Shown one piece after another: positions 34,092 to 35,052 of a stretch of 64,000 nucleotides of DNA. The stretch comes from a virus. The notes under the pieces are model-generated. The model was not told the origin of the DNA. It saw only the letters and a list, made by a program, of their open reading frames with translations, and ran no database searches. The position numbers and the translations under genes are program-made. The stretch spans positions 1-64,000 of the IMG/VR virus record IMGVR_UViG_3300047312_000028; one strand, written 5' to 3'. The first letter of the stretch is position 1. Each line of letters begins with the position of its first letter.

Positions 34092-34099
34092 CATAAATA
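34092..34099 (+). promoter_or_regulatory. T4 late-type promoter variant CATAAATA
   Basis: Same octamer precedes structural genes at 36455(-), 58420(-), 58888(+), 58919(-). Confidence 0.7.
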
Positions 34100-34125
34100 C
34101 GTGATACACCCCACAAGGATACAAT

Positions 34126-35052
34126 ATGAGTCTTGAAAAAATTACGATATCTCCCGACCTCTACGACATTATGCCCCCTGAGTATCAGGAGCTTGTCAGG
34201 AATGCCACCTACGGAAAAGAAGATCGTGGTTGGAAAGATATAGGTAATAAGAAAGAGTTGATTGAAGCACATTCATTATGCGCCGGGTGCCCAGAGTCGA
34301 TGGCATTCAGATATATCCTCGCTAGTCTCCCCAATCCCGCTGATACAATCATGGTAGGTTCTACAGGTTGTACCAGTCTTGTATTCCCAATGGTCGCTCT
34401 CCACAACATTCACTCCCTCTTCGGCAACCAAAACGCAGTCGCCTCAGGACTCAAACGTGCTTTAACTGTTAGGTTCCCTGGACGTATAAAAGACGTTGTG
34501 GTGCTTGCAGGTGATGGAGCGACGGTTGACATTGGTTTGGACATGACACTGCAAGCCTGGTTTCGCCAGGAGAAGTTTACGACGATTTGTTTTGATAATG
34601 AATTGTATGCGAACACTGGTGGGCAGGAATCTGGGCTCATGCAAAAAGGATTCGTAGCGAAGATGGCACCAGTTGGAAAGTTGTTCGATAAGGTGAGACT
34701 GCCAGAGATCGCCAGAGAGTCAGGATGCCATTTTGTTGTGCAGTGTACAGTGAGTAAGCCATCACTCGTTGAACGTGTCGTGCGTCAAGCGGTACTTGTA
34801 GCCCGTGAGATCGGACCAACGTATCTTCAACTCTACACACCTTGCATTCTCGAAATAGGAAAGAATAGTATGGAAGGCCTTCAGGAAATGCGCGATGCAG
34901 AGAAGCCAACCGAGCGTTTCGCCATGAAGGAATATATTAGTGAAGCAGCAAAAGAATTGCTAGCCGAAGTGGCAGTGAAAGATAAAGAACGCAAAGCTAC
35001 AAGATTGGCAGCACAAAATTCCACAAGTGTAACAGTGCCGGCACAAATCTAA
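34126..35052 (+). CDS. 2-oxoacid:ferredoxin oxidoreductase beta subunit (PorB/ForB type, TPP-binding)
   Basis: CAGC, STGC, GDG...DN..Y.NTGGQ.S TPP motif, YTPC. Confidence 0.92.
   Translation: MSLEKITISPDLYDIMPPEYQELVRNATYGKEDRGWKDIGNKKELIEAHSLCAGCPESMAFRYILASLPNPADTIMVGSTGCTSLVFPMVALHNIHSLFGNQNAVASGLKRALTVRFPGRIKDVVVLAGDGATVDIGLDMTLQAWFRQEKFTTICFDNELYANTGGQESGLMQKGFVAKMAPVGKLFDKVRLPEIARESGCHFVVQCTVSKPSLVERVVRQAVLVAREIGPTYLQLYTPCILEIGKNSMEGLQEMRDAEKPTERFAMKEYISEAAKELLAEVAVKDKERKATRLAAQNSTSVTVPAQI

Follow-up and report, generated by a model that had tools for sequence, protein, structure and literature searches.

Why would a bacteriophage carry one subunit of a carbon-fixation enzyme that is built from several? 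This question is raised by a gene for the beta subunit of a 2-oxoacid:ferredoxin oxidoreductase, which lies between the transfer RNA (tRNA) genes and the fibre genes in bases 1-64000 of the 176,325-bp IMG/VR record IMGVR_UViG_3300047312_000028. We refer to this 64-kb stretch, at its full length, as the window. The beta gene is a host-derived but phage-adapted gene under strong purifying selection, and the comparisons reported below make it very probable that it is a selected and functional part of the phage genome. The record is rated 100% complete by CheckV and contains a T4-like gene set (baseplate, tube, scaffold, neck, gp32, gp59, RNase H, ligase and RtcB), and phage genes flank the beta gene, which places it inside a bona fide phage genome, as an auxiliary metabolic gene should be. 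We are therefore dealing with a complete 176-kb T4-like phage, and its sequence indicates that the host is most likely a nitrite-oxidising Nitrospira. Members of this genus oxidise nitrite, or carry out complete nitrification in the comammox species, in soils, waters and treatment plants.

The protein has the features of a working beta subunit. Its open reading frame (ORF; 34126..35052, plus strand) starts with ATG and runs through 308 codons with no internal stops, and the product matches the Pfam model TPP_enzyme_C (PF02775; 62.5 bits, cut-off 21.9; 5e-17). In this type of enzyme the beta subunit binds the diphosphate end of thiamine pyrophosphate (TPP) and carries the [4Fe-4S] cluster closest to the active site. 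The TPP diphosphate/Mg motif of the family, GDG-X(about 30)-N, is present in the form of GDGA at residue 129 and of DNELYANTGGQ, whose last residue is 167 (NTGGQ at 163). Four cysteines, namely C52 and C55 of C52-A-G-C55, C82, and C240 at the end of YTPC, align with the CAGC, TGC and APC of solved beta chains, as expected for the ligands of the proximal [4Fe-4S] cluster. The top matches among solved structures are the beta chain of pyruvate:ferredoxin oxidoreductase (PFOR; 9bt4_C, 1e-23) and that of oxalate oxidoreductase (5c4i_C), and the GDG...N motif aligns in both. A preliminary description of the locus, made from the DNA letters, had reported an intact 308-aa TPP-binding beta subunit; the uninterrupted frame, the Pfam match and the presence of every motif that it quoted bear this out. 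Since the matches to the NCBIfam PorB and VorB models (about 105 bits against a cut-off of 405) fall far under the cut-offs, the phage protein is not a classical four-subunit PorB.

The gene stands alone, as the preliminary description had also stated. We searched the whole 176,325-bp genome with tblastn for the host delta, alpha, gamma and epsilon subunits and for the 89-aa protein of the host operon, and found nothing better than E 0.2. The Pfam models POR_N and Fer4_7 had no match in the same sequence, so that the beta gene is not encoded together with an alpha partner (POR_N), and our searches of the genome did not find a ferredoxin, a desaturase or other oxidoreductase subunits. TPP is bound where alpha and beta meet, so that a lone beta subunit cannot function by itself and must join host subunits. 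The phage gene set is thus incomplete and requires host partners, while the protein itself remains a member of the family.

To which host enzyme does it belong? In a search of 5.8 billion proteins the best matches were 80-93% identical, and the named ones were 'ferredoxin oxidoreductase' proteins of Nitrospira, Nitrospiraceae or Nitrospirota. As a host set we took the best 80 matches in a collection with one genome per species; they are 86-89% identical to the phage protein and include N. moscoviensis and N. defluvii, and for the most part they bear the name Nitrospira or Nitrospiraceae, with a few exceptions. The phage protein is 86-90% identical to the porB-type proteins of Nitrospira versus 41-45% to the second, forB-type paralogue. 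In the tree, a branch with support 100 separates the porB and forB types, and the phage clade falls within the porB group of Nitrospiraceae. The closeness to Nitrospira enzymes of the tricarboxylic acid cycle in its reductive form (rTCA), which the preliminary description had pointed to, therefore holds, and the best matches are proteins of rTCA autotrophs, not of heterotrophs that lack the cycle.

Wherever the flanks were long enough, the host orthologues sit in an operon of the order delta (CO_dh-like)-alpha-beta-gamma-epsilon (ferredoxin-like)-89aa, and none of the 80 host loci shows a conflicting order. The second Nitrospira cluster is arranged as beta2-gamma-epsilon-delta-alpha. The delta-alpha-beta-gamma-epsilon operon encodes the oxygen-tolerant type of oxidoreductase with five subunits that has been described in Hydrogenobacter and Aquifex (PMC8115632, PMC10052474). 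The sequence evidence supports the view that the phage gene goes back to this five-subunit enzyme of rTCA type in Nitrospira. The orthologue of N. moscoviensis (768226-769134) is NITMOv2_0813, which is annotated porB and highly expressed (reads per kilobase per million, RPKM, 1129), while the annotation of NITMOv2_0678 is forB, with acl, acn, idh and suc genes close by (supplement of PMC6606698). The Nitrospina genome paper matched to porA the 403-aa alpha subunit that lies beside the orthologue in N. defluvii.

The immediate surroundings of the beta gene comprise the following features:

34014..34087, plus strand: tRNA-Val(GAC), found with ARAGORN, the last of a 28-tRNA array and the conserved neighbour upstream of the beta gene

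34092..34099, plus strand: CATAAATA, an octamer resembling a T4-type late promoter, 26 nt ahead of the ATG of the beta gene

34116..34120, plus strand: AAGGA ribosome-binding site, read from the sequence, 5 nt (34121-34125) ahead of the ATG

34126..35052, plus strand: porB-like beta-subunit gene (308 aa), assigned from its ORF, Pfam, structure alignment, homologues and tree

35049..35663, minus strand: fibre-like gene (204 aa) that runs towards the beta gene and overlaps the latter's stop codon, 69% identical to its syntenic counterpart in contig L001

35670..36224, minus strand: fibre-like gene (184 aa) with an N-terminus of the type of the T4 long-tail-fibre distal subunit (phrog_1699 at 6e-8)

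36462-36455, minus strand: CATAAATA again, ahead of a 68-aa gene that heads the fibre-like group on this strand

The beta gene starts 38 nt past the end of tRNA-Val(GAC) at 34087, and with the fibre-like genes downstream on the minus strand it occupies the place between the last tRNA and the fibre genes that had been described for it. A PHROG search with the 204-aa gene gave no match of its own; its N-terminus matches that of the neighbouring 184-aa gene, which is of fibre type.

Several lines of evidence indicate that the gene belongs to the phage and is adapted to it. The fraction of G and C at third codon positions (GC3) is 0.44 in the beta gene; the average of the phage is 0.46 +/- 0.05, and the host orthologues have 0.63-0.87. 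We found two related phages: L001, a 68.6-kb contig in a metagenome-assembled genome (MAG) from GenBank, encodes a beta protein that is 93% identical, and L006, an IMG/VR contig, one that is 85% identical. In the tree they form one clade with the present phage (SH-aLRT, the Shimodaira-Hasegawa-like likelihood ratio test, 96-99) inside the porB radiation of Nitrospiraceae. The same tRNA-Val lies directly ahead of the beta gene in both, and synteny continues downstream through fibre-like, ligase, RtcB and RNase H genes in L001 and through ligase and RtcB in L006. The preliminary description had allowed for an assembly chimera at the junctions; the phage-type codon composition and the recurrence of the tRNA-Val junction in these two other assemblies speak against one.

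The beta protein is much better conserved than the phage backbone, whose proteins are only 27-71% identical between L001 and this phage. Between the two beta genes, the proportion of nonsynonymous differences (pN) is 0.064 and that of synonymous differences (pS) is 0.83, which is saturated. Selection on the gene, which the preliminary description had proposed to measure, is thus strongly purifying and not relaxed. With the porB of N. moscoviensis (NITMOv2_0813) and its N. defluvii orthologue the phage protein shares about 88% identity over the full length and the same motifs, and it keeps 232 of the 243 positions (95.5%) that are invariant among the 80 Nitrospira sequences, the 11 changes being mostly conservative. 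It differs from the host genes in its position outside the delta-alpha-beta-gamma-epsilon operon, its phage-type codons, a divergent C-terminal tail and its late-type promoter. The low pN and the retention of host-invariant sites fit a working subunit that must still match its host partners, and neither a passenger in decay nor a simple decoy agrees with this pattern of selection.

When is the gene expressed? The octamer CATAAATA at 34092-34099 is a TATAAATA-like element that stands shortly upstream of the gene. It occurs seven times in the window, where 1.66 copies are expected, and none of 100 shuffled sequences reached this number. When the whole genome is considered, 18 of the 26 sites of the form [C/T]ATAAATA lie 0-50 nt upstream of a start on the same strand, a location for which 3.9% of positions are expected to qualify (binomial p about 6e-20). 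The genes behind these sites are largely structural and include those for baseplate wedge, tube cap, head-tail adaptor (neck), tail tube and scaffold, and the fibre-like group. In L001 CATAAATA is kept at the same distance, with its ATAAATA core at -33, though the flanking bases differ, and L006 has CCTAAATA at the corresponding position. The phage also encodes a candidate for the factor that would recognise these sites:

genome 113772-114113 (L157): homologue of gp55, the late sigma factor of T4, found with the T4 gp55 query (39% identity over residues 7-121; 2.6e-21)

A PHROG scan of the genes at 42-54 kb of the window returned no late sigma factor there. The statement in the preliminary description that the octamer also precedes structural genes agrees with this distribution, and with a gp55 homologue in the genome the reading of CATAAATA as a late promoter is well supported by the sequence.

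Two further phage genes may bear on the assembly of the Fe-S cluster:

genome 93883-94200 (L107:9883-10197), outside the window: Fe-S carrier of the IscA/HesB type (Pfam PF01521)

46606..46848, plus strand: TusA-like sulfur-carrier ORF (80 aa) with a CPMP motif (Pfam TusA at 44 bits, cut-off 28.6)

The IscA-like gene directly follows the head-tail adaptor (neck) gene, which has its own CATAAATA, and its product shares 66% identity with the N. defluvii protein at the head of an additional oxidoreductase locus of the host, described below. The TusA-like ORF lies among genes of early or middle type and has no late octamer just upstream. From its sequence, the TusA-like protein is a possible helper in Fe-S maturation.

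The additional locus is a third one, besides the porB and forB clusters, and is present in several Nitrospira. It consists of iscA, an extra alpha gene (397 aa) and one additional beta gene each of the PorB and the ForB type (iscA-alpha'-beta'-beta2'), without gamma, delta and epsilon. We observed it in different states of preservation:

L143:6329-9819 and L144:6103-9568: intact, in two Nitrospira genomes

L142:6416-8618: without alpha, in a third sampled Nitrospira genome

L104:4131-8751: split by an IS21 (IstA/IstB) insertion, in N. defluvii at about 1.395-1.400 Mb

L105:5990-7262: with only a fragment of alpha and beta2 left, in N. moscoviensis at about 1.794 Mb

The remnant in N. moscoviensis, NITMOv2_1906, is weakly expressed in steady growth (RPKM 64; supplement of PMC6606698). 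The beta gene of the third locus has a host-like GC3 of 0.70 and is about 81% identical at the DNA level to the canonical copy. We considered a recent import of the locus from phages, which these two values rule out; it is an old host paralogue. Our literature search found no description of it.

The gene content of the third locus mirrors the gene sets of phages, including larger ones than that of the present phage. Six more fragments of T4-like phages in IMG/VR encode the same type of beta subunit, at 71-77% identity. In L007 and L008 the beta gene is alone, with an aldehyde dehydrogenase gene (L008:4497-5978), and L009 (4822-9399) has the order HtrA-beta-beta2. L011 (4733-8894) and L013 (4739-9180) carry alpha-beta-beta2-NifU-ferredoxin-IscA, in which the ferredoxin is of the 2x[4Fe-4S] type, and L012 (1251-7113) carries beta-beta2-alpha-ferredoxin-aldehyde dehydrogenase-thioredoxin-like. 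Only alpha and beta are visible in L010, which ends at the contig edge. The T4-like backbones of L009-L013 share RNase H, exonuclease and IscA with the present phage. Their cassettes differ from its single gene in having more oxidoreductase and redox genes, a GC3 of about 0.2 in the beta genes and another position in the genome. In the tree, the six other phage betas form a separate, deeper clade (support 100). Two independent captures by phages were considered on this basis; the free tree gives two clades, but the approximately unbiased (AU) test does not reject a single origin (p = 0.21).

Taken together, these results suggest a mechanism that we regard, as a whole, as reasonably probable. 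After a T4-like infection has stopped host expression, a gp55-dependent late promoter, CATAAATA, would drive PorB alongside the virion proteins. The phage beta subunit would then assemble with alpha, gamma, delta and epsilon of the host and replace or supplement a host beta that may be prone to damage, and the flux between pyruvate, acetyl-CoA and ferredoxin would be kept running until lysis. The IscA-like and TusA-like proteins of the phage would help to load the cluster of the beta subunit. Because the beta subunit holds the cluster nearest to the active site and the host has a spare alpha/beta operon, the alpha/beta core suggests itself as the limiting or damage-prone part of the enzyme. 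Oxygen damage to the proximal cluster is mentioned in PMC13768988, and the third host locus fits the idea that the alpha/beta core is a part worth duplicating.

A number of points weigh against this mechanism or parts of it. We found no terminator between the tRNA array and the beta gene, so that earlier transcription by read-through is possible and expression confined to the late phase is putative. That the beta subunit is more labile than the other subunits would hold by analogy, and the proposed Nitrospira host is deduced from gene similarity alone. The assignment to the PorB type, with pyruvate and not 2-oxoglutarate as the substrate, is taken from published annotation. The order delta-alpha-beta-gamma-epsilon equals that of the 2-oxoglutarate:ferredoxin oxidoreductase (OGOR) cluster of Aquifex (Table 2, PMC10052474). 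As the two orders are cyclically the same, gene order cannot decide between pyruvate:ferredoxin oxidoreductase (POR) and OGOR. A search for references for a POR/OGOR tree returned mostly fragments and proteins with no name, and the cluster look-ups named only relatives from Bathyarchaeia.

The replacement mechanism can be extended to a broader idea, which we offer tentatively and consider doubtful. The alpha/beta core of the oxygen-tolerant enzymes with five subunits, which comprises TPP and the proximal Fe-S cluster, may be an exchangeable, damage-prone module, of which Nitrospira keeps a little-expressed spare operon (iscA, alpha', PorB', ForB'), and T4-like phages may have taken the same parts, from PorB with IscA and TusA up to alpha-beta-beta2-NifU-ferredoxin-IscA. 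If true, this module of spare parts would be the counterpart, in dark carbon fixation, of D1 replacement in photosystem II.

A different purpose for the same subunit is unlikely, although it is the alternative that survives best. An extra beta subunit could raise or bias the activity of the enzyme, either so that pyruvate is oxidised to acetyl-CoA and reduced ferredoxin, or so that carbon and reducing power are rerouted to nucleotides and virions and not to biomass. Such a redirection of flux shares the assembly step with the replacement of host beta, and the purpose alone differs. The enzyme class is reversible. Activities have been measured in the decarboxylating direction (PMC10052474). The ferredoxin, aldehyde dehydrogenase and thioredoxin-like genes in the related phages suggest a wider redox rewiring, and late expression would fall at the peak of biosynthetic demand. 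However, the changes at host-invariant positions are few and mostly conservative, nothing in the sequence points to altered kinetics or direction, and it is the ferredoxin pool and the substrates, rather than the beta subunit, that set the direction.

We consider it very unlikely that the phage protein is a dominant-negative decoy, which would tie up the host alpha, gamma, delta and epsilon subunits in inactive complexes and so shut carbon fixation down. Cyanophage CP12, which blocks the Calvin cycle, would be a model for such an effect, and both the lack of partners for the lone subunit and the phage branches, which are longer than the host branches in the tree, could be read in this way. A decoy, however, would need the interface only, whereas this protein keeps the four cluster cysteines, the full TPP motif and nearly all host-invariant positions, with a very low pN over its full length, and the Fe-S carrier genes that accompany it argue for a working holo-protein.

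Most improbable of all is an artefact or a passenger, that is, host DNA mis-assembled onto the phage contig or a recent capture without a role: the contig does come from a metagenome, and among the low-depth Logan contigs of soil and rhizosphere runs no public contig bridges the 5' junction (34087-34126), but the 3' junction is bridged by contigs from two soil metagenomes, GC3 is like that of the phage and unlike that of the hosts, the tRNA-Val/beta junction and the synteny downstream recur in the independent assemblies L001 and L006, and synonymous sites between the phage copies are saturated while pN is low.

Is this gene type new to phages? Its occurrence in T4-like phages of Nitrospirota was already published in outline in 2020, with the same reading as an auxiliary metabolic gene. 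Coutinho et al. 2020 (Microbiome 8:163, PMC7678222) described T4-like Nitrospirota phages from Lake Baikal, of about 46-47% GC, with a PorB-like ferredoxin oxidoreductase and also with an OGOR epsilon subunit, an Fe-S biosynthesis protein, a desaturase and a ferredoxin, and proposed a viral modulation of the rTCA cycle and of dark CO2 fixation. A soil study of 2025 lists viral genes of the korB type more generally (PMC12615777). The Lake Baikal phage VP_1723, which we compared by its description only, resembles the present one in being a T4-like myovirus that carries, besides a gene for Fe-S cluster biosynthesis, a beta-type gene whose best matches are Nitrospira PorB. The present genome differs in being complete at 176 kb, in its association with soil and rhizosphere, and in lacking OGOR epsilon, ferredoxin and acyl-CoA desaturase.

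What is added here is a complete soil-associated genome with a lone beta gene, its late promoter, data on selection and codon usage, the conserved tRNA-Val junction and the spare-parts operon of the host. The value of these results lies in confirmation, in the extension to soil and in mechanistic detail, and not in a new principle. A functional parallel may be the psbA gene of cyanophages, which encodes D1 and serves to replace a subunit with fast turnover; psbA is generally reported as expressed earlier in infection. By analogy, in both cases T4-like phages that infect an autotroph would carry one subunit of a multi-subunit host enzyme of energy or carbon metabolism, almost identical to that of the host. 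The enzyme and the pathway are different, the timing of PorB appears to be late, and a high turnover of PorB is undocumented.

To our knowledge, no Nitrospira phage has been cultured, and the literature that we searched describes such phages from metagenomes only. The present genome, complete and with a PorB of host grade, an Fe-S carrier and a clear late-promoter code, provides reagents for asking whether infecting phages uphold the CO2 fixation of chemolithoautotrophs or rewire it. The same genome can be used to study which subunit limits the oxygen-tolerant rTCA enzymes and to link soil phages to their nitrifier hosts.

We also compared the phage with known phages and with host genomes. A tblastn search of GenBank phages with the beta protein gave ten matches, which are 27-33% identical and look unrelated or contaminating, and none is close; a megablast of 20 kb of the phage against GenBank phages gave no match. 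Among public run contigs, near-identical fragments of the phage were found only in soil and rhizosphere runs, and none of the runs listed for the stretch was an RNA run. Matches to CRISPR (clustered regularly interspaced short palindromic repeat) spacers, which the preliminary description had suggested as a link to Nitrospirota, did not materialise: one 20-kb segment of the phage, compared with 201 Nitrospiraceae genomes, returned only chance matches of 26-48 nt with no flanking repeats. In a 1.7-Mb Nitrospiraceae MAG (G285; L151, L155), contig C33 contains DNA that is 65-75% identical to the scaffold-gene region of the phage (L108:664-4503). This contig is probably a fragment of a related phage that was binned together with its host, and offers a weak hint of the host.

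Finally, the tRNA array ahead of the beta gene varies between strains and relatives. In one soil-run contig (X3), 210 bases of the window at 33833-34044 are swapped for 33 others; the replaced bases make up most of a small Cys-rich ORF between tRNA-Arg and tRNA-Val, which makes this a strain variant within the array. In L006, the array includes a transfer-messenger RNA (tmRNA) gene (L006:4735-5039), a few genes upstream of the beta gene.

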